NCBI RefSeq assembly: GCF_032062105.1
Contig: NW_026918140.1
Location: 1-64,000 of the forward strand
Reading direction: 5' to 3'
Length of the DNA: 64,000 bases
Source of the DNA: Saccostrea cucullata
Taxonomy: Eukaryota
Shown: in pieces, positions 9,816 through 35,250 of the stretch
Layout: each line of letters starts with the position of its first letter
Numbering within the stretch: position 1 is the stretch's first letter
Notes under the pieces: generated by a model
Seen by the model: the letters and a program-made list of their open reading frames with translations, nothing else
Databases searched by the model: none
Told to the model about the DNA's origin: nothing
Position numbers and translations under genes: made by a program

Positions 9816-11400
9816 TTCTCCTTGCTCATAAAATGACCAATTTTTATCAACTTTGATAGAATACGTTATCTCCATATCCTTCTTCATGTATTATTCAAGT
9901 AAAATGCTTTTGCTATCATTCCAAGACATTTTTCTAATTTCAATTTATACTGCATGGTATCTAAGGCTCGATTCAAGAAAATCTTTCTTCTCTAAAACTA
10001 TATTTTTTTCCTTTTGTGGGGTAAAATTCAACTTTTTAAAAAGACATTTTCTTGACATATAAACCTTGAATCATATTAAGACGAATAAGATGAAACTTGT
10101 TGCATGGAATGTTTTCATTTTCAAGCTTTATATTCATGCTTTTTTAATCAAATATTAGTTTTTGGAGTAATCCTTCCTGGCTGGGGATAGGATATCCTTA
10201 AATTATTTGTTATAAATAAAAGTTGGGAAATATATGAGATAAATATAATTTTCCAAGTTAATATCATTTTTTATCTTTATATGACTTCTTACATGTTCCG
10301 TAAAAAAATAGATAAACAAACCATATATAAAAAAATAAAATGGAGGAAATTAGAATTACCGATAAATGTGTATGCTCTGTGATTACTATCATCTGAAATA
10401 CCATCATAATTATCATCATAAGTGACTATAAATTACAAACCATCTAAAATTGTTTACCTATTTAATGGCGAATGGGCATTGAAAATAAATACATCAGAAT
10501 TTTTACACAGTTGCAATTTCGTTGAAAAGCCTTTTTTGATTAATAATCGTAAACAAACAGCTGTATTCGAACCTCGTAAATAGAACATAGAAAAATAAGG
10601 ACATTTGTTTTAATTTTGTACATGTAATTAATCGTTTGACATGAAAATTTTTAACTTCCTGGACATGCTTTGTGGTTAAGAAGGTGTCGGCTTGTGACGA
10701 CAGGACATCGATCATTCCTCCTACAACACATTTATATTGACACAGAAAACTATTTGTTAAATAAAGCTCATTTAGTGAGATATTTGAAATCAAAATTGAT
10801 GACTTTTGAATAATAGACAACAACAGCAACAAAAATCTGAAGGCACTTATAATTTTACATTTAGCAAAAACTGAAAATAACAACAATTTATTTTTTCTGG
10901 CTTCAAATAGTAACCAAAAATACAAACTGTTTCTGTTTTCGTACAAGTCTGATTAATACGTTAAGCATTACAATCTATATATTATTTAGAAGGAAAATGG
11001 ATAAGTATGATACTTAAAGCATTGTATGTGGTCAGTCTGCACATGCCAATTCATAAATTATCTATATAAATAAATAAAACGGTATTCAGTTTATTCTAAG
11101 AATGCTGACTTTTTCATGACTATATTTTCCTTCTTGTACAATGAGATAATTCCTAATTAACCACTGCAATAAATAATGAGTCTTAAACCACAAACTTATA
11201 GGTTACCAGTTGTAGGTGTGAAGTTCTGAAGCATGATGTGTGTAGGCACGTCCAGGTACAATAAATACAAACAGACAAATAGTGGTATCTCAAAATGATG
11301 GAGGAGTTCATTGAATAGAATTCACAGATAATCATCAAAACCTTTTTTTCTTAATATGTTAAATATTTACGTCCGTTTTCAGTATTAACAGTGAAAAAAC

Positions 11401-13733
11401 ATGGAGAGACTTGGCGCTGTATTTTATTTTTTAATGTTATTTATCAAAATCGTTTGTTCACATCCAATGTGCAACAGAAGATCATTACTAAAGAAATCCT
11501 TTTTCTCTCATCGTGAAGATTGTTCAATGTACTATGTTTGTTTAAATAGAAGGATATTTTTGATGAAGTGTGATGATGATGAAGTTTTTAATGTTGAGTC
11601 AGAGACTTGTGTTCCAAGAGGATCAGAGTTAGATTCCTGTAAGTAAATTAATATGTCGTTTATTTTGATGCTTGTCTTTTTTCCTTTCTATACTTATTAA
11701 CCATGTATACAAATCTTAGCACAGAAATGTTGTAATTAGTGATTTATATTAAAGAGGCTGGGGATTGTGGCCATTTTTAGACTATATTGATCTGCTTTAG
11801 AAGAGGAGTTCCATATGAAGATATAGAAAATAATCAAATTTTAAAACTTAAATGTTTGAAATTTTTCTTTGCCACATGATAGTTGACAGCTTAAGATACC
11901 GTATATATAAAATAAGTTTAATCTGGTGGTTAATTTGTTTTTCATTTACTGACTCCCCAGCCTCATTAAGTCTAAAATAGGAGCTGACACTTTGTTGAAT
12001 ATGGTTTTCTGTTTAAAAATCATTAAAAAAAATCCAAGCTTTACTTCAAATTCTGTTTTATTAATGGTTTAAGCACTAGATTTCAAAGTAGTCTTAATCT
12101 TGTTTTGGCAGGTTCTCGGAAAGTAGATACAAACGACTGCGCAGCACATAATGTTGGATTTCTTCCTCATATGACGAGCTGTGCAAAATATTTGGACTGT
12201 TCTTCCAAGTTACGTGGAAATCCCAGAATTCGTGAATGTCCATATCCACATCTTTTTGATTCCGTCACGAAGAAGTGTCGATATTTTAAAGAAGTTGACT
12301 GCGGGGATAGACATGAGCCAAAAAATCCATGTATGTTAAATATTAATTAGATATATGAAATTAAATATGAATTAAATTGTATCACGAGTTTATCACCTTT
12401 TCAACTGTTGCTTTTAATGCTGTGCTGTACGATAAAATTACATTACATTAATTTGTTATTTCAAAGATTTTTTTGAGAATATATTTTGGATAAGTACTCA
12501 TATGTAGTGTTACTCGAAATCACAGAAAAATAGGGGTCAGTGTGCATCTTACTGACCAATAATACAATTAAGTTGACCTTTTTGCACTTAAAATTTAAAT
12601 CTGGTTAAATACCGGGTGCTTTAACTTTATCATATTTTATCAGATGTAACCATGGCTATAAAGATATTATTATTTTATGTAAAATATTTTGAATAATATT
12701 TATTATCAAACAAATTTTGCTAATTAATGCGCCAAAATTATTGTGTGACATATTTGCACTAAAAAGTATAAATTTGGGGTTTTAAATAAAAATCTAATTA
12801 GGCCATAAGGCATTTTCTTATATAAAACTTTTTACGAATTTAATGCTGATCAGTCACAAGTATCGAGTAGTTTAAAACTGAAAGAAAAAGTTTGGGTCAG
12901 TGATGTTAATTTTGAAATATTGGTCAAAATATATGATTTTCAGGCGAAAAATGGTGTAATTTTTTTTTACTTCTTTAACATATCATCATTTTTTGGCACA
13001 GTTTGTTGAGGAAGGTGTAAAACTTGTTCTTAAAATATGAATTAAGACCTATATCAAATATTCCCAGCAATATCATAACGGAAAATATTCTCTGAGTAAA
13101 CATAATTATGTGAGGCTAAAGTTCCAAGATATTAAATTTGATAAATGTGCAGATTGTAGAATTTTCTTCTAAATATCCTTTCACCACAAGAAAAAGTCCC
13201 TCAGAAATCTTGCATCTTTGTGGTTTTTGAACAGTCTTTTTTTCATTGAATGTTAAACAATTTACATTGTTGAATTGAAATATGCTATTAAAATTGAATT
13301 CTATTAATTTTGAAGTAAGAGTTTCTGCTTGAACTTTTCTAAAAAGTTGACGAGTGACATACCTAAATACAAACTAACTTAGCTGGAAAACCTGCTGCAA
13401 TATAGATCAAATTCTTTTATTCGTTAGTCTTTGTAAATTGTACTTTGATTCATACATTATCCTATTTTCTTTTATTTTTTAGGTGACTACGACGTGTATA
13501 CTTGTAATGGTGATATGTGTGTCCCCTGTCGCTCTCGTTACCCTAGCTGTGTAGATTTACCTGACGGCCTGAACCCCTGGAGGGGGCGGGAGTGGACACC
13601 ACATTTTTTACTGTGTACCGGTGAAAGAGTTCTTTTCCATGGACTGTGTTCAAATTCACAAATTTTTCATCCAAGACAATTAAAATGCATGAATCCAAAA
13701 ACAAATACAACAAATCGAAATCCAGAAGCATGA
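11401..13733 (+). CDS. Secreted chitin-binding (CBM14) protein, paralog 2; exons 11401-11638, 12112-12330, 13483-13733; 235 aa
   Basis: Signal peptide MERLGAVFYFLMLFIKIVCS. Motifs HREDCSMYYVC, HMTSCAKYLDC..ECPYPHLFD, PSCVDLPDGLNPWRGRE. Phase-1 GT-AG introns at the same positions as the paralogs. 708 nt in frame. Confidence 0.88.
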
Positions 13734-14499
13734 AATATGCTACAAATTTAATATTTATTTATAACAATTCATCTTTTTTTCAAATGATCATCTTATTTTA
13801 TACATGTTTGTATATATTTGTTTTAATTATTCGTTATTGACTTATCTCTCTTTTATTTTCCCACTATTAAAAACGATTTGTTTTACAGAATTATCGACAT
13901 TTAATTCTTGTTTCAAACTCATTAAATGTTGTTAACAATGAATAAAGTTTGTAAAACGAGACAAATCTTAATTGTTTACATCATAAATGTACATGTACAT
14001 GTATTGTTTATTATTATTTCGTAGAATTTTTGCAGAAATTTAAAACCGTTTTTTTCGACTTAAATTTTTTTTTTTATCATAAAATCATTAGGGTGACAGA
14101 AATGCGATCACCTAAAAATGTTTTAATAAGTTTATTATGCAGAAGAGTTTTTTCTCTCCAAACACCAGACCTATCACAAGCATTTATGTCCGCTGTTCAA
14201 TCCACTTAACTGAATTGGATAAATATTATAAGAGGTGGAAAGTGGTTGGTCCAACCTGTTCTAGAAAGGTTGACCAATCACATCCCACGTTAAGTTTGGA
14301 TTCAATGTGCATTGAATTTAGTTGAAGACTTCAACTATATCACCTTGTGTGAATGGATATCGGATTTACAAAACACAACTTAAACGAAAGTGATAACGTA
14401 AATCAAATATAGTACACGTATGTTACTGGCTCCTGTGGTTAAGTTTTTTAAATGAATTTTTAATCACATGTTATGCCAATATTCATTTTCATATATTAT

Positions 14500-15558
14500 T
14501 TTTAGCGCACCCGAGTTGAAATCAGAAGTGAACTTTTCTGATCACACTTTGCCTGAAGTTCGTCTGTCCGTCTATCTGTCTTTTCGTCCGTCACTTTGTA
14601 AACTTTTCAAAATTTTGACTTCTTCTCCAGAACCGCTGGATAAATTTTAACCAGACTTGCTTGAAAGCATTCTTGATGACGGAGATTCAAGTAATACCTT
14701 CTTTCAAGGGGAGATAATTCAGAAATAGGGAACCTTTAGTGAAATGTTTCAAAATCTTCTCAAGCACCACTGGGCCAAAGAAACTATATGAAATCATCAT
14801 AACGTAGTGTCGATTCAAGTTTGTTCAAATGATGACCCCGTGAAAAGGATGGGGTTAAAATGGTGGATCAAAATTTTACATTGGAATATATATATATATA
14901 TGTCTTGAAAAATTTTCATCCTAAGAACAACAAAGCTTCGTTAAGTCATTTTATGGTAGCATAAAATAGCTCAGATTTAAGTTTGTTCAAATCCTGACCC
15001 CGAAGGGTATGTTGGGCAGACAAAGGAGGATAAAAGTGTTATATAATAATACATATACCCTCTCAAGAACAGAAAAGCGATGTTTGGTTATATCGATATG
15101 GAAGCATCCTCAGGTTATGTAGATTCAAATTTGTTTAAATGATAACCGCTGGAGCTATGCTGGACACAAAATTGGGGGATCAGAGTTTATACATATAGGA
15201 ATATATGGAAAAAATCTTCCCAACAAAAGAAGCTCATGTTTAGTCTTGTTAGTATGGAAGCATCATCAGGTAGTGTACATTCAGGGTTGTTCAGATGATG
15301 ACCCCCAGGGATAGGGAGGGACCATAAAAGATGTATCAAATTTTTACAAAGGAAATATAGGATAAAACCTTTGAAATTCCTTTGCTCAAGAACTTCAAAG
15401 CCATTTGTTATTTTGAGTTATTATCAATATTATTTTTATTATTATCAGTTTTATTAAAATTCGAGTCTACCCAATTAAAAATTTTTAATACTGAACAGAT
15501 CTGTGCTTCTTGCAAGCCAGTGTGCTAAGGCGAGTGATGTCGCCCATGGTTTTCTTGT
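14500..15558 (+). mobile_element. Non-autonomous Helentron-like element with internal ~155-bp satellite-like array
   Basis: 5' end ttttagcgcacc..aagtgaacttttctgatcac, a cgtctgtccgtc microsatellite, about four diverged units containing attcaagtttgttcaaatgatgacccc (14812, 14975, 15122, 15280), and a 3' hairpin ggcgagtgatgtcgcc followed by cttgtt. Confidence 0.65.
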
Positions 15559-15579
15559 TATTCACTTGCGTCTTCTATA

Positions 15580-16160
15580 CATCTTGGATATTTTACTTGA
15601 AAAAGACGTTAATAGTAATCTAACAACCAAGCTCTATGATAAACATGATGACATTAACTTTTCAATCGTCAACTTCTCTTACTTATGCAGCAATATACTT
15701 TCATCACATGCATAAGGAGTTTATACCTCTTAGTTGATTCGATACGCAAGAGCATGTTCTACGTACAAACGAATTCTTGCACGAGGTAAATTATTTGACA
15801 AACAAGTTGATGAAACAAGAATATCAGCAGTCTCGTTCAAAGTTATCATTTCGTAAGTTCAATGGACGATACAATGACGTTGTCAGCAAATACAATTTAT
15901 TATTGTGTCAAATGCTGACTGACATTTATCATACTTATTATTACTCCATTATTTATACACTGAATTGACGGCGGATTTTCCCGTTATTTCCCTATCATGA
16001 TAAGGAACACACGGCGGGTGTGAGCGTCTGCACGGAATGCTCACTCCTACATGGCACCTGATTCCAACACTGATAATTTGGAGGTCAGTGTTTGCACTGC
16101 TCCTATTTTGTGTTGTTTTCTGGACTTTTGATCTTGAATACAGTTCGCTATCTCCACATG
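15580..16160 (+). mobile_element. Naiad-type PLE, RT C-terminus and 3' end
   Basis: LDILLEKDVN..TTKLYDK and QQSR.K.SFRKF, followed by the family 3' motif. Confidence 0.8.
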
Positions 16161-18016
16161 TTTCGCAAAGTGCCAAAGGCAGGTGAAAAGGAGATTCTCT
16201 TCCCAGTCACGTGATCCTATCTCTGATGTTTTTGTGGTTGCTTAATGTTTTCTGCTAAAATATTTCATGCCACCAACCTGTGGATGAATTATTTGCACCA
16301 AAAATCATGAAATCAATGAAGACAATAGAAACAATATCTCTGATTTATCTAACTAGAACACACAACGCATGACACAAAAGCACCATTCTCATGGTGAGAA
16401 GGGACAAGGGAGAGAACCACACACAGTTTTCACAGGATAAAACAACAAGCCATTTATTTCAAATCGTTGAAAATTTCAATTCAACATGATTTATACTTTT
16501 TAAGATATCGGATTATATATAACCTTCGATGAAATCCGGTCATACACTTTCAATCGTTTCAAATAAAAATTTGAGATTCGCAAACGCATTCACAGATTTC
16601 TGTGCTCACTTTTCCATCATTAATTTGTAAAAATTTGTTATTTGTGACAAACTTATAGTTTTACATTTCATTTTAACCGTCTGTCTTTCTGACTACGTCA
16701 CACGCAATTGAACGTTTTCGTCCACCCTCCCATCTTTCGGTTTTCTTGTCATCTGCTGAGCAATCGATGACCCATCAACCATCCAAAATCGGTAAAGCCA
16801 TTCATCTAAACAACTCTCTTATTTACATTCTTTCCTCTGCGAGACTTGTGGATCAACCAAACTGTCTCTACTACCGATTTCCCGATTTTAAAGCAAAAAT
16901 ACATTACAGTTTGTTGTCACTAATGTGGCAATTTTCTTCCATTTCGACATTTCCTTTGATCAATACATCAAAGTAAAACAACAATGTGTATGATAAAAAT
17001 AGCAATGATGTCATTTAATTTTCAACTTAAGACTAGAAAATATTGTAAATTTTGTCTTTTTAAAATTTTGGGAGATTAGGTGCTTTGTAAAGATGCTTAG
17101 TTAATGTGTTTGTCTTTTTCATTCTTAAAAAGTACACGTTAATTCGTGACGTTTGGGTGTGACGCGGCGACATCCACTATGTTCTTTCTTTTAAACGTTT
17201 ATAAAATAAATTCATTTAAACATTCTTTGATGAAAATTTCAATGTCAATTGTATTTATGATTGTGCATCTTTTGGTATATAGCATTTGATAATATGACGC
17301 CAAATATTAAAGATATGGACACAGTGACATTACTTTTGGATCAACCTTCGTAAAACAACCTTCCGTTTTCGTCACGTCTAGATCCTTCGATGAAATCCGG
17401 ATCATCGACAAGACAGAGGTACTCTGTGCTCTGATAAATGTGCCTATTTGATGTAAGTATGCCTGAGTTTTGTTTCTGCCAAAACTGTGGGCATGAGCGT
17501 TTTCCGGGGATCATTATGGAACAAGACGCCATCTTGACTCTGCACACGGCACATCTTCTGATATGCGCACTCGTAGCATGTTTATTTGGTACTCGGCGCC
17601 ATTGAGGTAGCCAAAGTCATCGCCGCCTGCGACGGAAACTGATGAACCATGGGGCAGGTTTCCTGAATCGTGTGGTAGGCACAAAGTATTCACACCGTCA
17701 CCTGCATCTAAGTATTGTTTCCCTCCAGTTATCTCTGAATGAGAATAAAAGCCAACTTATTACACAAGCAACTCTATATACATTTAAATTGCAATCGTAG
17801 TAGAGTTCTATAAATATTCTTTTTAACGAGTTTTATCTTAGTTTGAAATTACGAGTTGATTTAAATTAAATGAATAATTTTTCTTTAATGATCTACTTAA
17901 TTGAATTTAATTAGTGTTTAATAATGCTTACTATTAACTTTTTTATGTAGCATTGTTTCGATTTGGAAAGTGCAAATCGAAATGATTACCTTCATAAACA
18001 ACTTCCGTTCCATTTA

Positions 18017-18226
18017 CTTTTGGACACGTTTTCTTTCCCCAAATTTAAAGGTGGAACCTAAGTAACCACATTATATAAGTAATGAAAGTAATGTAAAATT
18101 TGTAAAATTTCTAAATGAAATCATTCCGAACTTTTGGACAAGTTTTCTTTCCCCAAATTTTTAAAGGTGGAACCTAAGTAAATAAGTAATGTAAAATTTG
18201 TAAAATTTCTAAATGAAATCATCCCG
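18017..18226. repeat. Local tandem duplication (~110 bp) of part of pseudogene exon 2
   Basis: cttttggaca..ttttctttccccaaattt..aaaggtggaacctaagtaa..aagtaatgtaaaatttgtaaaatttctaaatgaaatcat occurs twice. Confidence 0.8.
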
Positions 18227-18441
18227 AGTACCATCTGGTTTTATGAATTAACAAAATATAAAATAGCTGATTATTTTCTGTTTCTAGTAATCAAATGATA
18301 CTCTATGTAATGTGTCTGCTACTTCAACGGCTATCATCACTTTAATTTCATTGTGAATGCTTGAACAACAAGAAAACATTTAAATAAGTTCAATTAAATA
18401 TTTTTTCAATGATGTACTCTTTATTCCGATGCAATCCTTTC

Positions 18442-18535
18442 GCCCGCGTGGTGCAGTGGTTAGAGCGTCTGCTCTACACTAGAGTGGCGAAGGAGTTGAT
18501 CCGTCCGACGTGGTTTTGATTTCCACAATGGGATA
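18442..18535 (+). mobile_element. tRNA-derived SINE head fragment
   Basis: gcccgcgtggtgcagtggttagagcg (A box) as in the SINE at 43882; the B box is degenerate. Confidence 0.6.
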
Positions 18536-19069
18536 TTAACACCGGTAACCAACAGAAAATAAAATGCTCTTTATTATTTAAAAAAAACGCAACATGCTCT
18601 ATCTTACAACAAATACTTCAAAGCCAGATTGTATGTATTTGAAGGCGTTGGTTTTACACCGATAGCTGATATAAATGTATCGTTCAAAGGAGAAAAAAAG
18701 TATTATACTTATCTAGTTTTTTTTAATTAAAAAAGATCTATTTTGTTTAAAAAAATAATAGGGTGGACGTGTACATAATTTGGGGCATTCAAAATTTTGC
18801 GTACTCACTGGATAAGGAGTTGTTGACGTAATTCTAAATTAGCGCTACACTTGTCCGTTCAGTGTTTTGTAAATGTAAATAATTTCTTAACGGTATTCAC
18901 GGATTAGCGCATTGCTGTCTGCGCCAAAGCCACCAAAATATGAAACCCACTTTTTAAAGTAGACATACAGTAATTACAGCGCATGCCAATGTTTTAACAC
19001 AGCATACTGTGATTCAAAACAAAAATATTGGAGTTGGTCACGTTTAAGTATCGATAGAATATATTTAAT

Positions 19070-19345
19070 GCAACATATGGAGATAGCGAACAGTATTCCA
19101 GATCAAAATTCCTTAAAACAAATAGAAGCAGAGAAACACGGACCTCCAAAACATCAGCGGTGGGATCAGGTGCCATGGAGGAGTGAGCATTCCCTGCCAA
19201 ACGGTCACAACCGCCGTGTGCTCTCCGTCATGACCGGCAAACAACAAAAAATCGTCATCAATTCAGTGAATGAATAATGGACCATTATTTAGTACAAAAA
19301 CGTCAGTCAGCACCCGACGTAATGGTAAATTGTATTTGTTGACAG
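19070..19345 (-). mobile_element. Naiad-type PLE 3' fragment
   Basis: Family 3' motif on the minus strand. Confidence 0.75.
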
Positions 19346-21331: not shown

Positions 21332-24300
21332 CTATTTTGCGCAAACAACACAGCCAACAAGAACATTGTTCTCATATGGAGGACAAGGGAGAGAACCACA
21401 CACGGTTTTCACAGGATAAAACAACCTTCCGTTATCGTCACGTCTAGATCCTTCGATGAAATCCGGATCATCGTCCAGACAAAGGTATTCTGTACTTTCA
21501 TAGTCATGCCAACTGGATGTCAGGAAACCAGAATACTGTTTTCGCCAGGTCACCGGGCATGAATGTTTTCCGGAGATCATGATGGTGGAAGACGCCATTT
21601 TGGCACGACAAACGGCACACGGAACATCTTCCTGTATGTGGACGCGGTGGATGGAAAATTGGTATTCTGCTCCATACAGGTGCCCGTAGTCATCACCGCT
21701 AATGACCGAAATACCATATGGTAGTCTTTCTGGATCGTGAGGAAGACAAAGGGTGTTTGCACCACCTCCTTTTTCTGAGAAACTTTTTCCACCGGTAAAT
21801 CCTGAATTAAAAAAAAAATAAACTGCAGACTTTTCTTGAAAATAGTTTCAATTGTAAAAAGGATATGTAGATAACGAACAGTATTCAATATCAAAGTCCA
21901 TAAATAATACAAAATAGGAGCAGAGCAAACACGGACCTCCGAAAAACCAGAGGTGGGATCAGGGACCATGGAGGAGTGAGCATCCCCTACTGACCAGACA
22001 CCCCGACGTGTATTCCTTGTCATGATCGTGAAATAACGGAAAAATTCGGCGTCATTTAAGCGTATAAAAAATGATCTAATAATTGATATGAAAAACGTCA
22101 GTCAATATTTCACTCAGTGATTAATTGTATTTGCTGACAAGGTCATTGTATCGATCATAGAACTTACGAAATGATGACTTTAAACGAAACTGCTGATATT
22201 CTTGTTTCATCAACTTTCTTGTCAATAATTTACCTCGTTTTAGAGATTGTTCATACGAAGAGCATACTCCTAATTATCAACTGAGATATATATATATACT
22301 ACGTATGCTAGTGATGAAGGTATATTGCTGCACAAGTAAAGGAGGTAGACGATAGAAAAGTTAAAGTCATCACGTTTATCATATAAATTGGTTGCTAGAT
22401 TACCATTAACGTCTTTTTAAAGTAAAATATCTAAGTATAAAAAAGATGTGTCAGACTCTGTGGAATCTTTTATCTCAGGCTCTCCTGGATATATCGTATC
22501 GACGTAGGAATGGAAATTACCATTGTTGATTGACAATACGTCGTCGATATATCTTCGTCGATATATCTTCAAGTTCAGTTGAAGGCCACAGCAAGTGTTT
22601 TCTTCTTTTAACGCATAAGATTTTGCATAAAATCTACTTCATATGAATACAAAAATAGGTCTGCTAATAACGGAGCGCAAATGGTTCCCATTGGAATTCC
22701 AATAGATTGTTGGAAGACCTGGTCTCCAAAAACCACCTAGATATTGTCAATCAGAAACTCAAGCATCTTCTTGCTGTCAACTTCAGGATTTTCTATATCT
22801 CTCAATTAATTGATTCACAAAGCTTTCTAAATCGATGTAAATTATTGACAAGCAAGTTGGTGAAACAAGAATATCAACAGTCTCGTTTAAAGTCATAATT
22901 TCGTAAGATCTATGTTCGATACAATGACCTTTTCAGCAAATACAATTTATCATTGAGTCAATTGCTGACTGACGTTTTTCAAACCAATTGTTAGTCCATT
23001 TTTATACACTGAATTGACGAAAGTTTTTTTCCGTTATTTCACGATCATGACAAGGAACAGACGGCGGGTGTGACCGGTCAGCAGGGGGTGCTCACTCCTC
23101 CATGGCACCTGATCCCACCTCTGATGATTCGGAGGTCCGTGTTTACTCTGCTCTTTTTTGTATTGTTTTATGGACTTTGAGATCGAATACTGTTCGTTAT
23201 CTCCATATCCTTATTCCCACACGGCCTCTGATCCCACCTGTACATTTAGTAGCTGTTTTTAGTCGACACTAAATTTGTTTTGCTTTAATTGACATTCTGA
23301 ATACTTGCAATCTTCATACAATGTTTTTTATCTGCTCTTGTTCATTTGTTGAATGAAATAATGATAGTTTTGTCTCATCTACTAAATTTGTGCAGAATGC
23401 TTTTTTTTGGGTTAATTTTTTAAAAAGAGTTTCACCCGGTCTAGTTAAATATTTGATACTTGAAATATGTTATATGCTTAGCAGTCACGCTCACCTCATG
23501 CATCTTTCCAAATAAACTTTAAATATTTTGATAAACATTTATATTTTTGTTTGATTTTGTAGTCATTCAAGAGGAATGTACTATTCTACTTCCTCTTGGG
23601 CCATCCTTAAAAAAATGTTTGTTTGGAATTGCCGCCTGAAAGGTTTCAGACACAGGATGGAGGGAGGGAAATTATTTTTTTTTTAATTAAAGAAAAAAAA
23701 TTAATTTTTGATAAAAGTTTCTGTAAATAGTAAATACATTTTCTGACTTTTAAAAAAAGTATCACTACCATCAACAAAAAATTCTAATTTTACCTAGATC
23801 TGACACTATATTTCAGTGTTTTTTTTTTTGGGGGGGGGGTGCATGTCATACATGTAATGGGCAAAAAAATTGATTAAATAAAAAAAATCTTGATCAATAA
23901 AATTTTTTTCAGGAGGGGGCAATTTTAACGAGGCGGGAGGCAATTCCAAACAAACTATAATTTTATTTTAGCCTTGTGCAAATATATACTACTTTACCCT
24001 AATACCCGTAATATATTATTTTTTGCACGCCGTATCTTTCATAACAAAATTGAATAATTGAATGCTTAGACAGCAATATTCCTAACGGGATAAATAAAAA
24101 TTACCTTTGTAAATCATTTCGGTGCCATTCACATTCGGACAGTTATTCTTTCCCCAAACGGTAAAGGTAGCACCTAAAAGTTTTTGAAAAATCATGCATG
24201 ATAATTGAATTGATACTGAATTTTGAAACAAATGTATTTAATGCATTGAGAGCCTGTTTGATATAATATGTTTGAGACATGCTTCTTGAAGTTTCTTGTT

Positions 24301-24662
24301 ATTGAAAAATCTTATCATGATTTAAAAAAAAAAAAATTCTATTTTATGCAATGCCTCGAAAATTGTCATTTGATTTTTAAAAACAAATTACCACGGTCGT
24401 TAGATTGCTGAGTAAGAGCGAAGATCTGACCCCTCAAGGACGATATTTCATTATTCTGGCTGGCCAGCTGAGATTTAAGGGCGTTTATTTCCTGGTCTGT
24501 AGTGGTTTTTAAGATGTTCACTTCTTGTAGAAGATGTTGGATTTGGGATTGAAGAACCTGCGGATCATTCAGGAGTAGTCGTTCCTGTCTTTCCAACCCA
24601 CGACATAACTGCACAATCAAACTGCATAGTAACACGGACGGTAATTTACAACCCTTAAACAT
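21332..24662 (-). CDS. Secreted short-chain collagen C4-like (spongin NC1-type domain) protein; exons 24662-24392, 24173-24105, 21801-21332; 269 aa
   Basis: Signal peptide, coiled coil, then TFTVWGKNNCP..YKGFTGG..GGGANTLCLPHDP..LYGAEY..DVPCAVC..GKHSCP..W.KQYSGFL..EYLCLD.DP..LFYPV..CGSLPCPPY..CVVCAK. Phase-1 GT-AG introns. 810 nt in frame. Confidence 0.87.
21862..23212. mobile_element. Inverted (head-to-head) Naiad-type PLE insertion: minus arm 21862-~22788, plus arm ~22790-23212
   Basis: The minus arm has RT remnants (GIPMGTICAP, YIDDVLS). Both arms end in the family 3' motif pointing outward. Confidence 0.8.
23598..23974. mobile_element. MITE-like element
   Basis: Inverted ends tttgtttggaattgcc / ggcaattccaaacaaa. 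Confidence 0.5.
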
Positions 24663-25125
24663 GGCTGATTAGTAGTTGTGAATTATATTGGAGACATTAT
24701 ATTTTTATCTATAAGACATAATTTACTAGAACTTCCTTATCGTCAACCCAATGACATAGATATGAGTGCACTGAAATATATGCTATCACAATATTAAAAT
24801 ATCTATAAACAAGATCAGCTATGTAATACATTTTTCTTGCTCTTTTTCGACTCAGAGTAAAAATATTCGTTGGTAGGTATGTGAGAATTTTACTTTCCTA
24901 GAGAGTTTAAACTTCAATTTAAATTCAAATTTCAAAATCGAGTTAAAATCTGTGATCCGGAATTAATAAAAAAAATAATTGCTCTCTGAAGGTTTAAAAA
25001 TTGAGTGGACTATTTTTTAAAAAGTCGCTTGGAAAGGGTAACTAAACAATATTTTCTTTTCAAGCTAGTCTTGTACACTTTTTATATTCTATTTTTGAAA
25101 ACCTTTTTTTTACAAAAAGACAAAC

Positions 25126-25128
<3 letters not shown>

Positions 25129-25197
<69 letters not shown>
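25129..25197. repeat. (GA)n microsatellite
   Basis: Directly visible. Confidence 0.95.
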
Positions 25198-25199
25198 TG

Positions 25200-27080
25200 A
25201 TTAAGAAAATATATCAGTTAATGGTCTCCAGCTTTCATCAAAAGATTCTTTTTCATTATTTTTATAAGATATATATTTTTGTAATTCGTATATTGTCTTA
25301 ATAGAGGATATCAAACCACCTAAGGAGATGTTTCTGTTTGTACATTTGTACAGATAGATATAATGTTATATTTGTAAGGCAATAATATTTTTAAGTTGAT
25401 CAGTTTTCTTCACAGAGCCCTATAAAAATTCTTTTTTTGAAAAGGTTATAGAAGTGCGGATTTTATTAAAACAGTAGTTTGCAAAATTCTCTAATAGAGA
25501 CTGAACATGTTCACATTCCCACAACAAATATTCTATTGTTTCAGTTTCTTTTTACAGAAGGTACATTTTTTATCATCAGTTTGATTAATTTTGTGTAGGA
25601 GGGAATTTGTCGCAAGTATTTTATGGTTTATTCTAAATTGAAACCACTGAAGTTTGGTGTTTTTTGTAATTTTGAATGGAAGTAAATAAATTATCTCCCA
25701 TTCACCATTGCTCATGTCAAATATTCTATTCCAAGAGATTTTACCCAATGGTTCAATTTTTTGTTGAATAAGTATTTCATATAAATCATGTGATTTCTTT
25801 GCGTTCAGGAGCGAATAAACATTATCTGGGATATATGGGTAAGCTATCTATGATAAGTTATTTTGATCTCTGTTTATCTTTCTTAGCCATTCTAATGTAG
25901 ATGCCTTAATGCCACTATATTCAAGAAAATGTGTTTTTATCCCGTATTTCATATATAGATCATTCAAACTCATATATGTCCCATCTTCATTGAGTATGTC
26001 ATTTATACATAAAATGTTACAAGAGAACCATTTTTTATAGAAGAATGGCTTTTTGTTAATGTTAAATTTTTTATTATGGAATAATGGTTCTAAAGAAGTA
26101 AGTGTATCATTTTGTAATGATTTGTCCCAAAAGCTTTGCCATGCATGTAACACGTCCTTCCAAAAATTATTTTTTAAATTATTGATCTTTTTGACAACAT
26201 ACTCTCGCCCATAACATACAATTTTTTTAATGTCAATATCTAAAAAGGAGTCTAACCCATTGTCCCGCAGTAATAATTTTTTCATCCAAACTAGTTTTAA
26301 GGACATAATGAACTCTCTTATACTAATCATCTTAAAGCCCTCTTCTTTGTAATTCATTACACATTTTTTTTTTCATTTTAGTCTTGAAATATTACTTCCC
26401 ATTACAAAAGTATAAAAAAGATTTTCTAATTCTTTCATTTGAATTTCAGAGGGACTTGGGAGAGATGCAAAAACATGATTTAAAGTTGGCAATAAAAGAG
26501 TTTTTAGAACCATCAGACGACCAAGAGGAGTTAAATTTCTCCTGTTCCAGTGTTGCATTAATTTTTTTATATTACTTATTTTTGATGCACAATTAAGCAT
26601 AAATATATTTTTTAAATCTGTGTCAAAATCAATGCCTAATAATTTAAAAGTTATTTTCTCCACTCTAACATATGATCTGTACTTAGGGTATCGATGCTGC
26701 CTTTTTGGGACCCAATCCAGACTACTTGAGTTTTTCTGTAATTTATATGCAAGCCTGACATATTCGCAAATCTTTTAAGAGTGGTGAGACTTGTTTGGAG
26801 TGATCTTTCACTTCCATCTAATATTAAGAAGTATCATCTGCCAACATACTTAACTTTTTTTTCAGTATTCATAAACCGAATCCCCTTTATATTCAAGATA
26901 TTTTATTTCTTCTACAAGTTTTTCTTATTATTGCTTTGTTAGTTTCTTTTTGTATGAGGAATAGGAAATACATTTTCCTCTCATTTCCATGAGTAGGGTT
27001 TCTAAAAACAATTGATCATTTATTGTAAAGACTAATTCTTCATCATTAATTTGCTGTACACTTTTTATGTCTAACTGTTA
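25200..27080 (-). mobile_element. Tx1/L1-like non-LTR retrotransposon ORF2, 5'-truncated and degraded
   Basis: ADD RT motif near 26840, GL.IN..KT, FKLLGIDF, W.RRNLTPLGR..VLKTL, FWKDVL.AW, TKLQWFQFRINHKILATN..C.FC (zf-RVT-like); ORF ends at TAA 25201-25203. Confidence 0.8.
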
Positions 27081-27894: not shown

Positions 27895-29737
27895 CGGAGA
27901 TTTCTGCGATTTTGTCATTTTTAGAGGGTCACTTTGTCCGGCAATGTTCTCAAAAACCATTGAAGATAGAAGTGTGAATTTTTGAGGGATGCTAGAGCAA
28001 ACTTTGGAGAAGTGCCTTTTGTATATCACAACTACCGGAAGTACGAAGCGCCGACGCTCGCTATGGCCCGAAAATAGACCTATCGCGAATTTCAAAATTT
28101 TTAACATCTTTTCTACGATAGCTTTATACCTGGAAATATTTTGTTAAAACATATAGAACAAAAGAAGTGTAGAATTCCAAGATCTTTCAAATGATATCTT
28201 GTAAAAAGGGCTGGCCCCTTAAATTAAGGGCCTAGAGGGGTCAAAAGATTTTTCTTTATATCTCAAAAAGTATCGAGAATTTGTAATACATCAAAGAAGC
28301 AAAGTTGTCCAAAATGTTAAGCTTAATCTTTTGGCGTCTTCAAAATACGTCCGGCGTCGTCACTTCCGGCAAAACCGGAAGTGGTCGGAAAACGCGTATT
28401 TTTGCCGAGCTTGGAAAGTTTTTGGGTAACATATGTCTCTGGGAGCATAAAAATTAATTTTCCGTCCGTCGTCGTCACTTCCGGTCAAACTGGAAGTAGC
28501 AAAAAATGGCTTATTTTTGCATTAATTAACATAGGTTTAGATGATTCAACCCATTTTTTGGCGTTAATTCTCATTTTTGTTAAAAATGAAAGGTACTTCC
28601 GGTCGAACAGGACGGAAGACCTACTCGTTGCTTTGCAACGAGCTTTGCTCTAGTTATTATTATTTTTCTTCTTCTTCTTCCTGGGTACTTTTTTGTCCGG
28701 GAATGATCTTGTAAACTGTTCATCCGATGTAGGTAAAATATTTTTAGGGTAAGTAGACATGTTATGAAGATTTGCGGAATGAAGGTCATTTTGCCCGCAC
28801 GTGCTTGCAAGAGCGTGCACGTGCAACACGTAAAATGACCAATATAATCGATATAGCGGCAACGTTTTTATTTTTTGATGAATTGCTTTGAAACTCATAA
28901 TAAGAGGATATATTAGTAGTATAGACATGATGACATGGTCAAAATAGCAAGATCTCACGCGCTTGCACGTGCGCTTCGCTCTGATTGGCTGAAACTAAAG
29001 TCTCAATATCTTTCTTGTTTCTTGACATAATCCTTTGAAACTTTGAACATAGTCCTACATTATAAAGATCTACAGCCTGATATATAAGAATTTTCAAGAA
29101 AGCATGCGCATGCACGTGTGCTGCAATCTGATTGGCTGAAACTTTATATAGCTATAACTCCCTTGGTTTTCAACCAAACAGGATGGAATTTGGAACATAG
29201 ATTAGATATAATGGACTTCTACAAGAAGGTATGGTCACCATGCACATACATACACATGCGTGTACGTGCGCTGCAATCTGATTGGCTGAAACTTTAAACA
29301 GCTATAAGTCCCTTGGTTTTCAACCAAACGGGGTGGGATTTAGAACATAGATAGATGTAATGGACTTTTACAAGAAGGTATGGTTACCATGCTCATGTAT
29401 GCACATGCGTGCACGTGAAATGAGTAAAATCAAAAATACACTTGAATGAGCGTATTTTTTAATACTTTTGGATTAAATACTTTAATATTTAGTATATTTA
29501 AATATATAGATTGTATAGGCAAGATGATATGGTTATTACGCACATGCATTCACATACACATGCGTGCAATGCTAAAATTTGAATGAACTTGGTACACTTC
29601 TGGGTAAACGTTGGTAAAGTCTCAAATGCATCGAGTTTGTCTTATTTAATGAAGTTTACAGGGAATATGGCACCAAAAGGGAGTTGGGGAGCGTTTGGGG
29701 AACATCTGTAACGGTCCCCGTTACAATTAGCACTAGT
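27639..29737 (+). mobile_element. Non-autonomous Helentron-like element (outer) with internal ~130-bp tandem repeats
   Basis: 5' subTIR/IR tgttccccaaacgaagttggggaaca, 3' subTIR cgtttggggaaca, hairpin tgtaacgg-tcc-ccgttaca, end ctagtt. Repeats of gcacgtgcgct..ctgattggctgaaact at 28965-29420. Confidence 0.7.
27693..28654 (+). mobile_element. Non-autonomous Helentron-like element (inner, nested)
   Basis: 5' aggtcttccg..cggaagacct, 3' gacggaagacct plus hairpin ctcgttgc-ttt-gcaacgag plus ctagtt. It interrupts the outer element at ttcttatt|attattttt. Confidence 0.7.
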
Positions 29738-30314
29738 TTGACTTGATATTGTTCTCAAATGTTCAATGTATTACTTCGAATTAGAAAAATGAGTGTTTAA
29801 ATTACGAATAAGGTTTAACTCAAGCATTTTTTTGGAATGGAAAATACATGCACTTTAAGGAAAATATAAAGAAACAAAGTTCCTTTAATGTTTTTCTCTC
29901 ATTTTTGATCATTCAAGATTGGTCAACAAGCCCAAAACATTTTGCATATCCAATGAAAGAAAGTGAAGGCATTGGACAGCGATCAATGTCAAAAACAATT
30001 CAAACAGTAAAATTCAAGAGAACATGGCGTGAATATGGACTCCTGGAAATCGGGTTTCTAGGAGAGTAAGCATCCCTTGTTGATCGTTCACCACGCCATG
30101 AGGACTATGTAATTATTCAGGTAGACAGAAAATTCAGTCAAAATTAGTATAAAACAAATACTTGCAAATTGGTATGAATCCCAAATTGCGACCAAGTGAT
30201 AACTCATATTTTCTGATACGTTCATTATAATGACCATGCATCGAATTGACGAAATCTAGATTTAAAACGAGATCCATTTAATATCATCTTACACATGCAT
30301 GTGTAGGTAGCCCG

Positions 30315-30530
30315 TAAAGTGATTTCCTGATAGTAGTACAACAACTGAATCACTTTAGGTAAAAATAATATATTTATTATAAACAATTGATTGGAGAAAT
30401 ACAACAAAATCAGGGAGCTCTCAAATCATGGCCTGCACCTGGCTTGGCGGAAACGCGGGAAGAGAGCGAGATATAGGCTTCCGAGCCCGAACCCAATTCC
30501 AAATTAAAAACACCCCCCAAATACACTACA
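30315..30530 (-). repeat. 3' LTR (TGTAG...CTTTA), with AATAAA at 30373-30378
   Basis: Direct repeat of 33266-33481, preceded on the minus strand by the polypurine run GGGGGGGAA (30531-30539). Confidence 0.93.
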
Positions 30531-30939
30531 TTCCCCCCCATTTTGTGGAGGAATGTCCCAATTCCGACAAAGTGGAGGCCATTTACAATATAAAATCACA
30601 TAACACTTTTACACAAAAAAGATAATTACCTCCTGTAATGTACAACGAACAAGCTAATTACATGATAAAATATTCACAAAATATCTTTTAAACATTGACT
30701 GTCCAAATCATGATCACGATTGGCTCTATACAAAGAAACAGTTCTCCACAGTTCTTCCTGACCATCTGCTACTGGCGGTATTGGCGAACACGCCAGCACG
30801 GATCCTCCCTGGACTTCAAACACAGGACATCATCAGAAAATCTAGACTAGGACAGCAAGCATCAACTTAATCATAAAGGCAAAGAGTCACCTGATAATAG
30901 CCCCGCTCTAAGAGCAAGGGGCATGAATCTAGCATCTAA

Positions 30940-32988
30940 CTAGTCTGGTGGAATCGATTCCTCAAGCCCAGTACAATGACACTTTGTGGTTGTGCACATT
31001 GTTTGCCCCGGGCCTGCAGGGGCCTGGGGTCTATTCAGCGGCTCTGACTTGTCCTTACCAATGCCCGTAAGTCGTTCCGGGCACTCACGACGGAAATGCC
31101 CAGGCTGATGGCATTTAGAGCAACAACCTCTCCGGCGGTTTTGTTTGCGTTTCCAGGGGAAATCCTGTCCCTTGCCTTTGGGGTCTCTTTGGTCATGCCT
31201 ACCTCCTGACTTGACACCTGAATTTCCCCTCTGTGGCTTCCAATTTTTGGTCTTCCAGGACCCCTTACATGGAGCTTGTGGGGGAGACTTTTTCTCCACG
31301 CCTGACGGTGTACTGCCTAACGAGACAGAGCGCACAACTCTGTGTTGAGGCGTAAGGGCTTGACGGCTTAGCTGGTAAGTCTTTACTCTCCTCACAGCCT
31401 CATCCAAATTAACAGGGGGGCTGTCGATTAGCCGTCTGCCTGCGCGCACATCCGTGCAGCCCATCGCAAACCGCAGGACTGCTTGCTCCTGGAGCACTTG
31501 TCCCGATACTCTAGCCCCTAGAGCGCGTTGCGCGGTTTCCATGACACGGTCACCCCACTGCTCTAGACTCTCGTCAGTCCCTTGAGTCATGGAGTTAAAC
31601 TCCACTTGCGATGCGGCCTGCAATGTACCCTTTCCGAACCGTTGCTCGAATCGAGATGCTATCTCTTGAAAAGTCATATGCTCACCCCGTGAGGAGAGCA
31701 GGTAGAAATATCTCAGTGCTGGTCCCTCTACGGAGACACTGAGAGCCAACAGACTATCATCATCATCCCACCTATAATAGCGAGCCAACGTTCTAAATTT
31801 AGCGTAGAACAGACCCCACTCAAGGTCTCCAGTGTACCTAAGACTCTTGGCCTCTGCAGGGATAATACGCCAAAATCCTAGCGAGTCACTACGAGATGAA
31901 TCCAAGAGTATTCCAGGGCCCCCTAAGGGAGAACTTTCCCTGCCACAGAGAGGTGCAACTGATACATTACTCTCCTTTGGCCCAAGCTCCACAACTGCAC
32001 TCCCCAAAGTGACCACTGGCAAAGCCTTTATGCCTTTCTGACCCCTATCATACATCTGCCCCGATGCAGAACATGAGTGACTCAGAGTCCCGGGGGATTC
32101 CCTATTTGCATTTTCATATGCCTCCTGAGGCATAGCGTAATCGGACTTAACCGGAGTTAATGGAACTTGAAAACTAGAGAGGGGATCCCCCCAGGACACT
32201 GCCCCCTTACTGGTGTGTGACTGAGTCCTCATGATTGAGGGATGACTACCCCCATTCCCCTGACCAACACTCTGGCCAGGGGAAACCCTCAATGGATTAC
32301 CGCCATACCCACTTGAAAACAAGACTCTACACGGCCCCTCATTATTTCTCTGTCCCGATTGGCCCCCATATGAGAATACTACACTAGTGCTTGTACATGT
32401 AACCTGGGTGCTGCTGGGTACACTAGTTACACAGGTCGAACCACCCGACCTGGGGTTCCCTGTGGGGCTACTCAATGAGGTTACATTGTGCCTACTCACT
32501 GCAGTGTTCCTGTTTTTCTCCCTTGCATGAGATTCCAGGGAGTGGTTATCCCCTGACTTCCCTACCAGGATCTGGGTCAGTTGGGCTAATTGGGTCTGAA
32601 CTCCCTTTAACCATGCCAGAACCTGATCACTGCTCGGAGTAACCCCCAAGCTTTGATGTGGTCCACCCCCAGCTGTCCCAATGTCAGTGGCTGTATCCAT
32701 ACCCCGCCTATCATTAGTCTCCAGGGTAAGGGACATGTCTACCTCCCCAACCACAGTATTATTCTCACCCCCTCTACTGCCCGAAGTGCCAAATACTGGT
32801 GGTCTGAACGGAGTTAACCCAGATATTTGGTCTGCCCAACCCGGTTGAGAGCCACCCCGTGCATTTGCATTATGCCCCTGGGCCCATGCCAAACCACCCG
32901 GCCTAGCTACCTTGCCCCCCAGGACACCCATGCCACTCATGCGCTCAGGACTCTTAACCTGACCAAATAATTTTTTCTTCTCACTCAT
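30940..32988 (-). CDS. gag: Gag polyprotein, 682 aa: G/S-rich N-terminal half, capsid-like domain, CCHC zinc knuckle
   Basis: Uninterrupted GC-rich ORF. Ty3/Gypsy capsid-like segment YTGDLEW..F.AKF...A....W..L.VSVEGPA..F..RF..F.SMTQ..DESL..W.DRV. Knuckle CSKCHQPGHFRREC (CX2CX4HX4C). Confidence 0.9.
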   Translation of the reverse strand: MSEKKKLFGQVKSPERMSGMGVLGGKVARPGGLAWAQGHNANARGGSQPGWADQISGLTPFRPPVFGTSGSRGGENNTVVGEVDMSLTLETNDRRGMDTATDIGTAGGGPHQSLGVTPSSDQVLAWLKGVQTQLAQLTQILVGKSGDNHSLESHAREKNRNTAVSRHNVTSLSSPTGNPRSGGSTCVTSVPSSTQVTCTSTSVVFSYGGQSGQRNNEGPCRVLFSSGYGGNPLRVSPGQSVGQGNGGSHPSIMRTQSHTSKGAVSWGDPLSSFQVPLTPVKSDYAMPQEAYENANRESPGTLSHSCSASGQMYDRGQKGIKALPVVTLGSAVVELGPKESNVSVAPLCGRESSPLGGPGILLDSSRSDSLGFWRIIPAEAKSLRYTGDLEWGLFYAKFRTLARYYRWDDDDSLLALSVSVEGPALRYFYLLSSRGEHMTFQEIASRFEQRFGKGTLQAASQVEFNSMTQGTDESLEQWGDRVMETAQRALGARVSGQVLQEQAVLRFAMGCTDVRAGRRLIDSPPVNLDEAVRRVKTYQLSRQALTPQHRVVRSVSLGSTPSGVEKKSPPQAPCKGSWKTKNWKPQRGNSGVKSGGRHDQRDPKGKGQDFPWKRKQNRRRGCCSKCHQPGHFRRECPERLTGIGKDKSEPLNRPQAPAGPGQTMCTTTKCHCTGLEESIPPD

Positions 32989-33246
32989 AACTCAGGGACA
33001 ACTGACAACAACTAAAGATCAGCCCGACTTACTGCCCTACATGTAATACACTAATATATCACAATACAACTCACACAGAAAAATTGATTCACAAAAATAC
33101 ATAATCCAATCACTGATTTCTTGCAAATTTCATAACCTGATTCCATTCACCGCCGAAATAATTAATTTAAAACCATAATCACCTCCACGTGGCCTGACCG
33201 CGCGGCGTCCCCTGAGCGCCGCTTCGGTCTCGTAAGACCGTCAGAA

Positions 33247-33264
33247 ATCCTACCGGCGACGCCA
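33247..33264 (-). promoter_or_regulatory. Primer binding site, tRNA-Ser-like
   Basis: TGGCGTCGCCGGTAGGAT lies one base inside the 5' LTR and resembles the complement of tRNA-Ser 3' ends (TGGCG.AGTCGG.AGGAT). Confidence 0.75.
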
Positions 33265-33265
33265 A

Positions 33266-33481
33266 TAAAGTGATTTCCTGATAGTAGTACAACAACTGAA
33301 TCACTTTAGGTAAAAATAATATATTAATTATAAACAATTGATTGGAGAAATACAACAAAATCAGGGAGCTCTCAAATCATGGCCTGCACCTGGCTTGGCG
33401 GAAACGCGGGAAGAGAGCGAGATATAGGCTTCCGAGCCCGAACCCAATTCCAAATTAAAAACACCCCCCAAATACACTACA
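33266..33481 (-). repeat. 5' LTR
   Basis: Direct repeat of 30315-30530, adjacent to the PBS. Confidence 0.93.
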
Positions 33482-35250
33482 CCCGCCTTGATTTTAAAAC
33501 TCGCTCTACACTGAGCATGCTCTAGATCTTGTGTATCGAATTAGTTAGGAGAAATATGTTAGGAGATCAGAAAACTCGGTTCACGATAGAGGATGTAATT
33601 AATTGCCTAGCAGTTATTAGGAAATATTTCCATCAATATTTGACTTTATGATATGATCATTTGCTGACAAGGTGTTTGCATCGACCATAGAAATTGCGAA
33701 ATGATACCCTGTTTTAGAAATTGTTTGTAAGTAGAACATATTCTTGTGTATTGCCACAACTGAGATATATAGCCCCTAATGAAGATAAAAAGTTTATTAT
33801 GATAATAACCGAGTGAATTTTGCAACTGAAAAAATGAAGTAATCAAATCTTTATTGAATTTATGATATGCTTTATAATCTTTGTTAGTTAGGCCACCACT
33901 AACGTCTTGTCCTAGGAAATTATCTAGACATGAAAAAGATATCTCAAACATTGTAGTATTTCAAGATCACTGGAGTTTATCTAGTCGCCGTATGAATAAC
34001 AATTTTTTTATTGAAACGTTGTCTATATATATATATATCGACATTGAAGCCACAACAAGTGTTTCATCTTATCATGTTCTAGAATCTGAGTGAAATCAGC
34101 TTCATATGAAATCAGAAAATGAGTCAGTTTAATAGGGGAGCAAAAGGTACCCTTGGATATTCCCAGAAATTTTTGAAAGACCCGGTCTACAAAAACTACA
34201 TACATTTGTAGATATTGTCAATCAGGATAACAAGGATCTTTTTAATATGAATTTTACATAAACTGTACCCGTGTCTTTAATCAAATAATGTGTTTAAACA
34301 AAATAATTTTCAAAAATAACCAAATCTTTTAACTTTTTTTGAGTTGTGAAGTCGAACACGTATATGCTAAAATTCTGAGCGGTATTCAAATCCTTTAATT
34401 TTTCTTGAATGATTCTATTTTTATTCACAGACTATTACAACACGTAAAAAGGCAAAAAAAAAAAAAAGAAGAATTAAGAAAATAAAAAATATTGCAAATA
34501 AATATGTAAAAATTTCAGACCATATTTAATTCGCTGACAAAATATATTTTTTGAATAATTGTTCTCGTTAAAGGACCGGGGATTCCTCAGTGAAACAGAA
34601 TATTTGGAATTTTTCAGAACTTGCGTATATGATAAAAGTATCAAACTCGTGAAAAATTTATTAAACCTAAAACCTTAGAAAATAGTCAAATAAGATTAGC
34701 ACAATTGTTCATCGCAGTCTAAATACAATATATGCATTTGTTTTATCTTCGTGGACACCGTTTACTTAATAGGCGTTTATTAAAACATTTACATGCAATG
34801 TTTTGTTGTGAACGTCTCCGACTTTTTTTTACAGACTATAAAGTTGTTAATGAATATTAAAGAAACTTGATTGCTTTAACATCTCTAAGACATTATTTTG
34901 CAGCAAGTGTTCTATAAAGACATGTGTATAACACCAGTCTCGGACACATGTACGGTACTTTATTTAAAGTGTATTGATATATTGATTTGCATGATTACAG
35001 TCTTTTACATGGCTTTTCCTTTATTCTACATTACCCAGTAATTTCACAAAGGAAAAAGTTGTTAAGGGTGATAATATTGATATATTTACTGAGTGAAAAA
35101 CAAACCTTTTAAAAAAATTAAATATATATATTTAAGATATTTCTTTTATTAAAAAGATAAAATAAAACGAATATAAAAATATAAATATCCAAACAATGCA
35201 TAAATAGATAAAAAAGTGTAAAAAAAAATCATAGAATAGAATCATAGATG

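Follow-up and report, generated by a model that had tools for sequence, protein, structure and literature searches.

Anatomy of the element

The window analyzed here comprises positions 1 to 64,000 of contig NW_026918140.1 from the Saccostrea cucullata assembly GCF_032062105.1. On its minus strand, between two copies of CCCG, it carries a long terminal repeat (LTR) element of 3,167 bp (30315–33481) that encodes Gag and no pol. This element is a real and probably recent copy of a multi-copy, non-autonomous, Gag-only family of Ty3/Gypsy retrotransposons, which likely arose by two nested internal deletions from a 9.1-kb parent in the same genome and is likely copied by the enzymes of this parent. 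Relatives in the genome include the pol-bearing parent family, a shorter form with gag and protease (gag+protease form), and autonomous sister families. The element is organized as follows:

30311–30314, no strand: left copy of the target site duplication (TSD) CCCG, from the sequence
30315–30530, minus: 3' LTR, 216 bp, with the ends TG...TA
30531–30545, minus: polypurine tract (PPT) with an upstream AAAAT motif, common to the parent and similar in the sister families
30546–30939, minus: 3' untranslated region (UTR) without an open reading frame (ORF) of at least 80 aa, partly aligned (77%) to the pre-LTR region of the parent and to the gag+protease form
30940–32988, minus: intact gag ORF, 682 aa
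31002–31052, minus: remnant of the parent's post-integrase linker (41/51 nt), in frame in the Gag tail, marking the deletion junction
31075–31125, minus: CCHC zinc knuckle of the nucleocapsid (aa 622–638), below the Pfam cut-off, with the motif plain in the sequence
31354–31869, minus: capsid domain (aa 374–545), predicted two-lobed helical fold, ratio of non-synonymous to synonymous divergence (dN/dS) ~0.1
31870–32988, minus: G/S-rich N-terminal region (aa 1–373), mostly disordered by prediction, a lineage-wide trait
32989–33245, minus: 5' leader, likely the packaging region, 80% identical to the parent over 223 aligned nt
33246–33264, minus: primer binding site (PBS), 19-nt complement of host tRNA-Ser(AGA)
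33266–33481, minus: 5' LTR, 216 bp
33482–33485, no strand: right copy of the TSD CCCG, from the sequence

The two LTRs differ by a single mismatch (30375, T versus A) and terminate in TG...TA, not TG...CA. The 5' UTR spans 277 bp, the gag stop is separated from the 3' LTR by 409 bp, and the PPT directly adjoins the latter. The PBS matches the 3' end of tRNA-Ser(AGA) over 19 nt including the CCA; a tRNA pattern derived from it gave five matches in the host genome (control: 0), three of which are tRNA-Ser(aga) according to ARAGORN. The anatomy described in an earlier note on this DNA (216-bp LTRs with one mismatch, CCCG TSD, tRNA-Ser-like PBS, PPT, uninterrupted gag of 682 aa) was recovered in full.

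The same note had seen no pol in the ~410 bp between gag and the 3' LTR, and this holds as well: tblastn with the family's own protease (PR) and with reverse transcriptase (RT), RNase H (RH) and integrase (IN) of relatives gave no match in the window element. A pol hidden by frameshifts can be rejected, because tblastn shows no pol and the sole other open stretch of at least 80 aa in the sense frames measures 93 aa and lies within gag. Pol remnants with a private breakpoint at 30531–30939 would have pointed to a one-off loss; this interval is free of pol and the gag-to-PPT junction is common to the family (see below), while the linker remnant of ~50 bp sits upstream of it in the 3' end of gag and is non-enzymatic.

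The Gag protein

Pfam searches with the window Gag returned matches to Retrotrans_gag, PNMA and zinc knuckles, all of them sub-threshold. From structure prediction of aa 370–563 (mean predicted local distance difference test score, pLDDT, of 81), the protein is predicted to adopt an Arc/PNMA2/Ty3-like capsid fold, with the capsids of PNMA2, Arc, dArc1/2 and Ty3 as best structural matches (best Foldseek E 2e-4, 11–20% identity). The full-length model is poor (mean pLDDT 38, 9 sequences). It shows a lone low-confidence helix (aa 120–143) within an otherwise unstructured N-terminus and is compatible with N-terminal disorder, for which it is weak evidence because parts of the capsid scored low too.

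An N-terminal extension of ~350 aa had been regarded as unusually long in the earlier note. This view is rejected by comparison with the autonomous relatives: in the window Gag, aa 385 is where the capsid motif begins, versus aa 354–433 in 8/8 relatives measured, and the pre-capsid regions are alike in composition (14–16% Gly, 12–14% Ser). The long G/S-rich N-terminus is hence a trait of the lineage.

A search of public proteins with the Gag core gave only five matches: four are unnamed assembly proteins, and the fifth is an oyster gene model that includes part of a Gag. Two of the five are Gag+protease and one stops after the knuckle; they were not counted as gag-only elements. The gene model (P0005, cadherin EGF LAG receptor-like) starts with a fragment 74% identical to the window Gag capsid, likely an element within a gene that was absorbed by the annotation.

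A multi-copy family with a common junction

The host assembly (1.17 Gb) is fragmented into 23,869 contigs. In keeping with a rock oyster as host, an ORF of locus L021 matches a database protein assigned to Saccostrea cucullata without a difference. A DNA search of this genome with the element, in which 40 of 118 candidates were scored so that all family counts are lower bounds, revealed at least seven other single-piece full-length matches of 83–95% identity and many partial ones. Among 38 family loci examined, 11 are gag-only elements with two LTRs and matching 4-bp TSDs, three of which have internal duplications or insertions. They represent ten independent insertion sites with ten different TSDs, as L006 and L008 share their flanks and were counted once. 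The remaining loci comprise seven gag+protease loci (six sites) and a tandem array, two solo LTRs with TSDs, and partial copies. Uninterrupted gag-only copies measure 3,115–3,178 bp; their LTR pairs are 88–99.5% identical, with the window copy and L004 being the youngest by this measure. Taken together, these elements show the features by which TR-GAG elements are defined: LTRs, PBS and PPT, a length of no more than 4 kb, several copies that differ in their TSDs, and Gag similarity without protease, RT, RNase H or integrase.

All 15 other gag-only loci that span the gag-to-PPT region (element nt 2331–2960) align through it without a gap larger than 28 nt and therefore have this junction in common, whereas the 11 gag+protease loci align only from element nt 2424 or later (11/11). 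The gag-only element is thus a multi-copy family. A one-off deletion after insertion, as would be indicated by a unique copy whose relatives all carry pol, is rejected by the ten different TSDs together with the shared internal structure and junction. An assembly artefact is likewise next to impossible: the assembly is indeed fragmented, and a few of its loci look duplicated (L006/L008) or chimeric (C21310), yet ten different TSDs around the same internal structure refute this explanation.

The pol-bearing parent and the probable nested deletions

Screening of 53 loci with RT, RH and IN of relatives located pol within a family element at three loci (L049, L052 and L053). The remaining matches are located beyond the limits of the elements or on the other strand, or belong to two sister-family controls, and none of the gag-only or gag+protease elements in this screen contains RT, RH or IN. 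A genome DNA search with the parent pol recovered the same three loci at 93–100% identity and nothing else above 73% (40 of 116 candidates scored). The best-defined parent copy (C18042) measures 9,103 bp, is flanked by the TSD TTAC and has LTRs that are 98% alike. Its family is a pol-bearing candidate for the autonomous partner sought for the window element. Parent and window LTRs are 75–77% identical and agree fully over their first 12 and last 10 nt; the PBS deviates by one base in C18042 and is identical in L052; and the PPT motif is the same. Outside the LTRs, the aligned parts of leader and 3' UTR show 80% and 77% identity, respectively. At the protein level, the window capsid is 82–93% identical to that of the parent and 54–60% to those of the sister families. 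The latter are rejected as direct parent, since their LTR bodies fail to align with the window LTR.

The family belongs to Ty3/Gypsy, as evident from the pol order of the autonomous relatives and the Ty3/Arc-type capsid. Pfam detects all four domains in the order PR-RT-RH-IN in L027, and RT, RH and IN in L053, where a protease motif lies upstream. The parent is also represented in contigs of another sample (run X1, by guess DNA) in 30/30 bins and in RNA-library contigs (run X5, in which DNA carry-over is possible) in 30/30 bins; oligo-dT reads are few (35 and 65).

Three nested size classes thus exist in the genome: the 9.1-kb parent, the gag+protease form (3.5–3.7 kb when uninterrupted) and the gag-only element (~3.15 kb). 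The gag+protease loci (L010, L011, L019, L050, L054, L072 and others) constitute a separately amplified non-autonomous form with its own TSDs. Its aspartic protease is recognized at the Pfam level and contains a DTA motif. Downstream of the protease, the sequence of this form continues with a short segment of the post-integrase linker known from the parent, followed by the pre-LTR region. Compared with it, a further ~600 nt, protease included, are gone from the gag-only element. The linker remnant scored above all 200 shuffles in 8/8 gag-only and 3/4 gag+protease copies tested; in the window copy its lead was narrow (score 42 versus 38 for the best shuffle). The gag+protease form is likely the intermediate, and the order parent, gag+protease, gag-only would follow from the nesting; a tree of capsid DNA (39 of 40 rows kept; L020 was too short) left the monophyly of the two short forms unresolved. 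In this tree, the parent copies form their own clade together with one truncated copy (100/100).

Other parent-type internal deletions occur at L086 (G000:C9348 ~24100–26050) and L061 (G000:C9048 ~287750–288560). They set gag or protease beside a TatD ORF (see below) without RT or IN; both are single loci. Tandem arrays of LTR-sharing elements were encountered twice. The array at G000:C1126 ~7250–19100 (L047, L048) consists of rearranged gag+protease elements, and that at G000:C7530 (L024) of three sister elements with a 7,587-bp period and identical scores (100% over 2.4 kb compared). Both could be real tandem integrations or assembly duplications.

Selection on the capsid and transcription

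Selection was assessed from pairwise Nei–Gojobori counts with bootstrap limits, gapped and stop codons being dropped. Between the window copy and six gag-only copies, the capsid dN/dS amounts to 0.09–0.13 (bootstrap upper limits 0.16–0.26, synonymous divergence dS 0.21–0.33), compared with 0.21–0.62 for aa 1–130, 0.54–0.74 for aa 131–373 and 0.58–0.87 for the tail. Across the 15 pairs of six young copies, which like all pairs used here are not independent, the value for the capsid is 0.15. The capsid is therefore under purifying selection. In young copies, LTR pairs differ by less than 3% while the capsid dS is ~0.2, so most of the divergence arose in replicating ancestors and not by decay in place. 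The parent is more distant (dS 0.69–0.77), which places the selection after the lineage had separated from the parent copies sampled. The signal could owe something to recombination, either with the gag+protease form or with an unsampled autonomous lineage.

Contigs of one RNA library cover 28/30 bins of the element. At the level of the window locus, RNA reads (from runs of unspecified tissue or stage) are few and stem mostly from other copies. The RNA data show at most low transcription at the level of the family, as opposed to expression of the window copy.

Probable mobilization in trans and its alternatives

The earlier note had proposed an animal family that supplies its own capsid and borrows Pol. 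The first part stands, given ten insertion sites, a common junction, selection on the capsid and a pol-bearing partner; the second we infer. Insertions flanked by TSDs need an integrase, which the element lacks, and the simplest reading would therefore be mobilization in trans. What is observed is the anatomy, the many independent insertions, the common junction, the three nested sizes, the shared cis signals and the purifying selection on capsid codons.

A plausible course of events would begin with a full-length RNA that is transcribed from the 5' LTR and translated into Gag. This Gag may favor its own RNA and co-assemble with the Gag-Pol polyprotein of a helper into mixed particles. In the autonomous relatives, a single frame (~2,100–2,230 aa) comprises both gag and pol, so helper enzymes would enter particles as part of such a polyprotein. 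Mixed particles are proposed for the parent because of its high capsid identity to the window element, which is only 54–60% for the sisters. Then, the helper protease would mature the particle, the helper RT would prime on tRNA-Ser(AGA) and the PPT, and the helper integrase could recognize the conserved TG...TA ends, generating a 4-bp TSD. Selection on the capsid could result from a packaging advantage in cis, as a copy that brings a working Gag would have its own RNA packaged more often. Loss of the protease as the second step would be possible since the helper supplies this enzyme within the shared particle. The parent family is very probably this helper, the sister families being far less probable candidates.

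Several observations weigh against this scenario. All three pol-bearing parent loci of this assembly contain stops or frameshifts, and a working helper of the same family was not seen among the 40 of 116 candidates scored. The parent locus C21310 may be chimeric, as its 5' flank matches the TSD at the 3' end of another contig and its 3' flank is identical to that of C18042. Moreover, the parent is already distant from the window copy by its capsid dS, and the selection on the capsid may partly date from a time when the protease was still present in the lineage. In comparison with its nearest copy (L002), the window capsid shows four non-synonymous and no synonymous differences, and each of the other gag-only copies inspected (6/6, projection of young copies) harbors at least one frameshift. 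The capsid tree mixes gag-only and gag+protease copies in an unresolved group, which blurs the order of events, be it through recombination or poor resolution. Finally, three oligo-dT RNA runs contained 68, 108 and 63 matching reads from 11–13 million records each; these are mostly 90–99% alike, derive from both strands without clear bias, and include only 5/239 at ≥99% identity.

Conceivably, the stripped element is more than a parasite and reflects a lasting two-component split of the single-frame lineage, in which it supplies free capsid to mixed particles and thereby controls the Gag:Pol ratio or how active a helper bearing PHD finger and TatD (see below) becomes. We regard this as rather unlikely. 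If true, the stripped element would have been selected for about as long as the capsid dS of 0.2–0.3 implies, and the 9.1-kb parent, the gag+protease form and the gag-only element would constitute a natural record of a capsid gene leaving pol, the step before an Arc-type domestication.

The present helper might also be a sister family (70% pol DNA identity) instead of the parent. These families comprise young, uninterrupted copies with LTR pairs that are 100% identical in L026, L030 and L034, and single open gag-pol frames of 2,100–2,230 aa in L024, L026, L027 and L028. Their ends are likewise TG...TA, their TSDs measure 4 bp and their PPT is similar, and the disruption of all parent copies would favor them. 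However, besides their unalignable LTR bodies, their PBS differs, their capsid identity renders mixed particles less likely, and the parent family continues to segregate in other samples. A sister helper is thus unlikely.

Quite improbable is a partnership in which the excess of free Gag from the gag-only element raises helper transposition or, in a dominant-negative fashion, limits it. The fusion of gag and pol in one frame in the autonomous relatives and the strong conservation of the capsid in the non-autonomous lineage would fit, and a trans-acting Gag was raised as an open possibility for plant elements by Chaparro et al. (PMC4350172). Yet, the sister families manage their replication from single frames, and the 20 loci fetched, a set short of a systematic search, include none of their gag-only derivatives. 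In addition, the benefit in cis alone explains the selection, and expression looks low.

Host co-option of Gag, as for Arc, PNMA and zebrafish Bik-1, is very improbable. The ORF is intact with a predicted Arc/PNMA2-like fold, and young gag-only endogenous retroviruses provide a precedent (PMC12067270). Such a fold is expected of any Gypsy Gag, however, and most copies are frameshifted. The selection signal reflects divergence between independently inserted copies and so accrued during replication, while RNA reads matching the window copy are almost nil. A domesticated gag would be a single-copy host locus without LTRs; this family is multi-copy with LTRs and TSDs.

PHD finger and TatD ORF in the autonomous lineage

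In the autonomous relatives, the integrase is followed by a PHD finger (PF00628, E ~1e-10), with which the pol polyprotein terminates (L075:7664–8026, minus strand; L027 ORF1 aa 2176–2220). Chromoviruses have a chromodomain at the corresponding place. The PHD finger is a candidate module for targeting chromatin.

The autonomous Gypsy relatives also possess a second ORF, situated downstream of pol and before the 3' LTR, in which a TatD DNase domain is encoded (PF01026, E values from 1e-15 to 1e-28). It is located at L049:8828–9592 in the parent family, at L021:7641–9374 and at L027:8036–9913, and occurs also in L080, L081, L083 and L084. The domain was detected in 14/26 loci tested, two of which overlap. 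Four of five more distant loci carry TatD with intact motifs, and at least two are ordered gag-PR-RT-IN-PHD-TatD. The parent family, L021 and the distant families have intact active-site motifs; the L021 protein matches E. coli TatD with an E value of 7e-13 and keeps the metal-binding motifs. In one young sister family (L026–L029, L031–L035, ORF2), the TatD ORF is open (~626 aa in L027, L028 and L034) with the predicted metal-binding histidines replaced, which probably leaves a conserved nuclease fold that is inactive. Another sister family (L024, L025, L030, L038, L040) is devoid of the TatD ORF, and the gag-only element has lost TatD together with its ORF. TatD-related proteins are annotated as uncharacterized host genes in several oysters. 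An Atlas structure search with TatD returned only bacterial TatD clusters, no longer TatD fusions were found in what is a weak test, and the literature searched contained no description of TatD-bearing Gypsy elements.

In the surroundings of the window element, a ~149-bp tandem unit in about three copies lies just to the left (29100–29570). A highly repeated, well-covered sequence starts ~170 bp to the right (~33650–33781). Run X5 covers it at much greater depth, and each of the RNA runs contributes reads; it is probably another repeat family.

Comparison with known systems

The gag-only LTR design is already known from plants and vertebrates and as such is no surprise. In plants, it is represented by the TR-GAG elements described by Chaparro et al. 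in 2015 (PMC4350172). Like the window family, these are shorter than 4 kb, possess LTRs, PBS, PPT and a single gag ORF with a zinc knuckle, and occur in multiple copies with different TSDs; according to that account, their mobilization in trans is likewise inferred and their origin is by deletion from autonomous families. Unlike the TR-GAG elements with their plant hosts, 5-bp TSDs and TG...CA ends, the window family resides in an animal, generates 4-bp TSDs and ends in TG...TA. It works like TR-GAG and is not filed as a plant TR-GAG. For TR-GAG1, no similar full-length element was found, whereas a parent and a gag+protease intermediate are identified in the present case; the word "selection" is absent from the main text of that paper.

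The statement of the earlier note that gag-only elements are described mainly from plants is too narrow in light of animal precedents. Zebrafish BHIKHARI Bik-1 and Bik-2 carry gag without pol, and chicken ENS-1/ERNI is described as a non-autonomous variant of ENS-3 (PMC12067270). Similar to the window family, these are young animal LTR families with Gag and without pol for which complementation by a partner is inferred, and ENS-1 has an autonomous relative in ENS-3. In contrast, they are endogenous retroviruses with demonstrated host roles, while the window family is an invertebrate Ty3/Gypsy lineage with no evidence of such a role. Mammalian ERVL-MaLR elements also lack pol and env and show gag homology to the autonomous ERV-L (PMC11359688; see also PMC1331978), but belong to retroviral class III, are far more abundant and mostly old (PMC11359688).

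With Arc, dArc, PNMA2 and Ty3, the window Gag shares the predicted two-lobed helical capsid fold. Arc and PNMA are LTR-less host genes, whereas the window Gag sits in a mobile element. The LTR retrotransposons Juno and Vesta of bdelloid rotifers resemble only the parent family, through an additional nuclease ORF that separates pol from the 3' LTR. There, the nuclease is described as a DEDDy exonuclease, with TatD unmentioned in the part of the source covered (PMC5408684), as opposed to the TatD-fold nuclease of the parent family.

For molluscs, no description of a gag-only Gypsy family was found in the literature searched, a weak negative that covers few subscription papers and not Repbase; in the part considered of a mollusc LTR survey, the words "non-autonomous", "PHD", "TRIM" and "PBS" are absent (PMC6238403). 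The present case also suggests that LTR classification pipelines based on pol domains would miss such mollusc families. Compared with earlier descriptions, which often lack these features, it adds an identified parent, a surviving protease-bearing intermediate, a mapped junction, and capsid selection measured in a non-autonomous lineage. It thereby provides a clean case in which to ask why a Gag of its own is retained by a parasite, i.e. for weighing a packaging advantage in cis against effects in trans.

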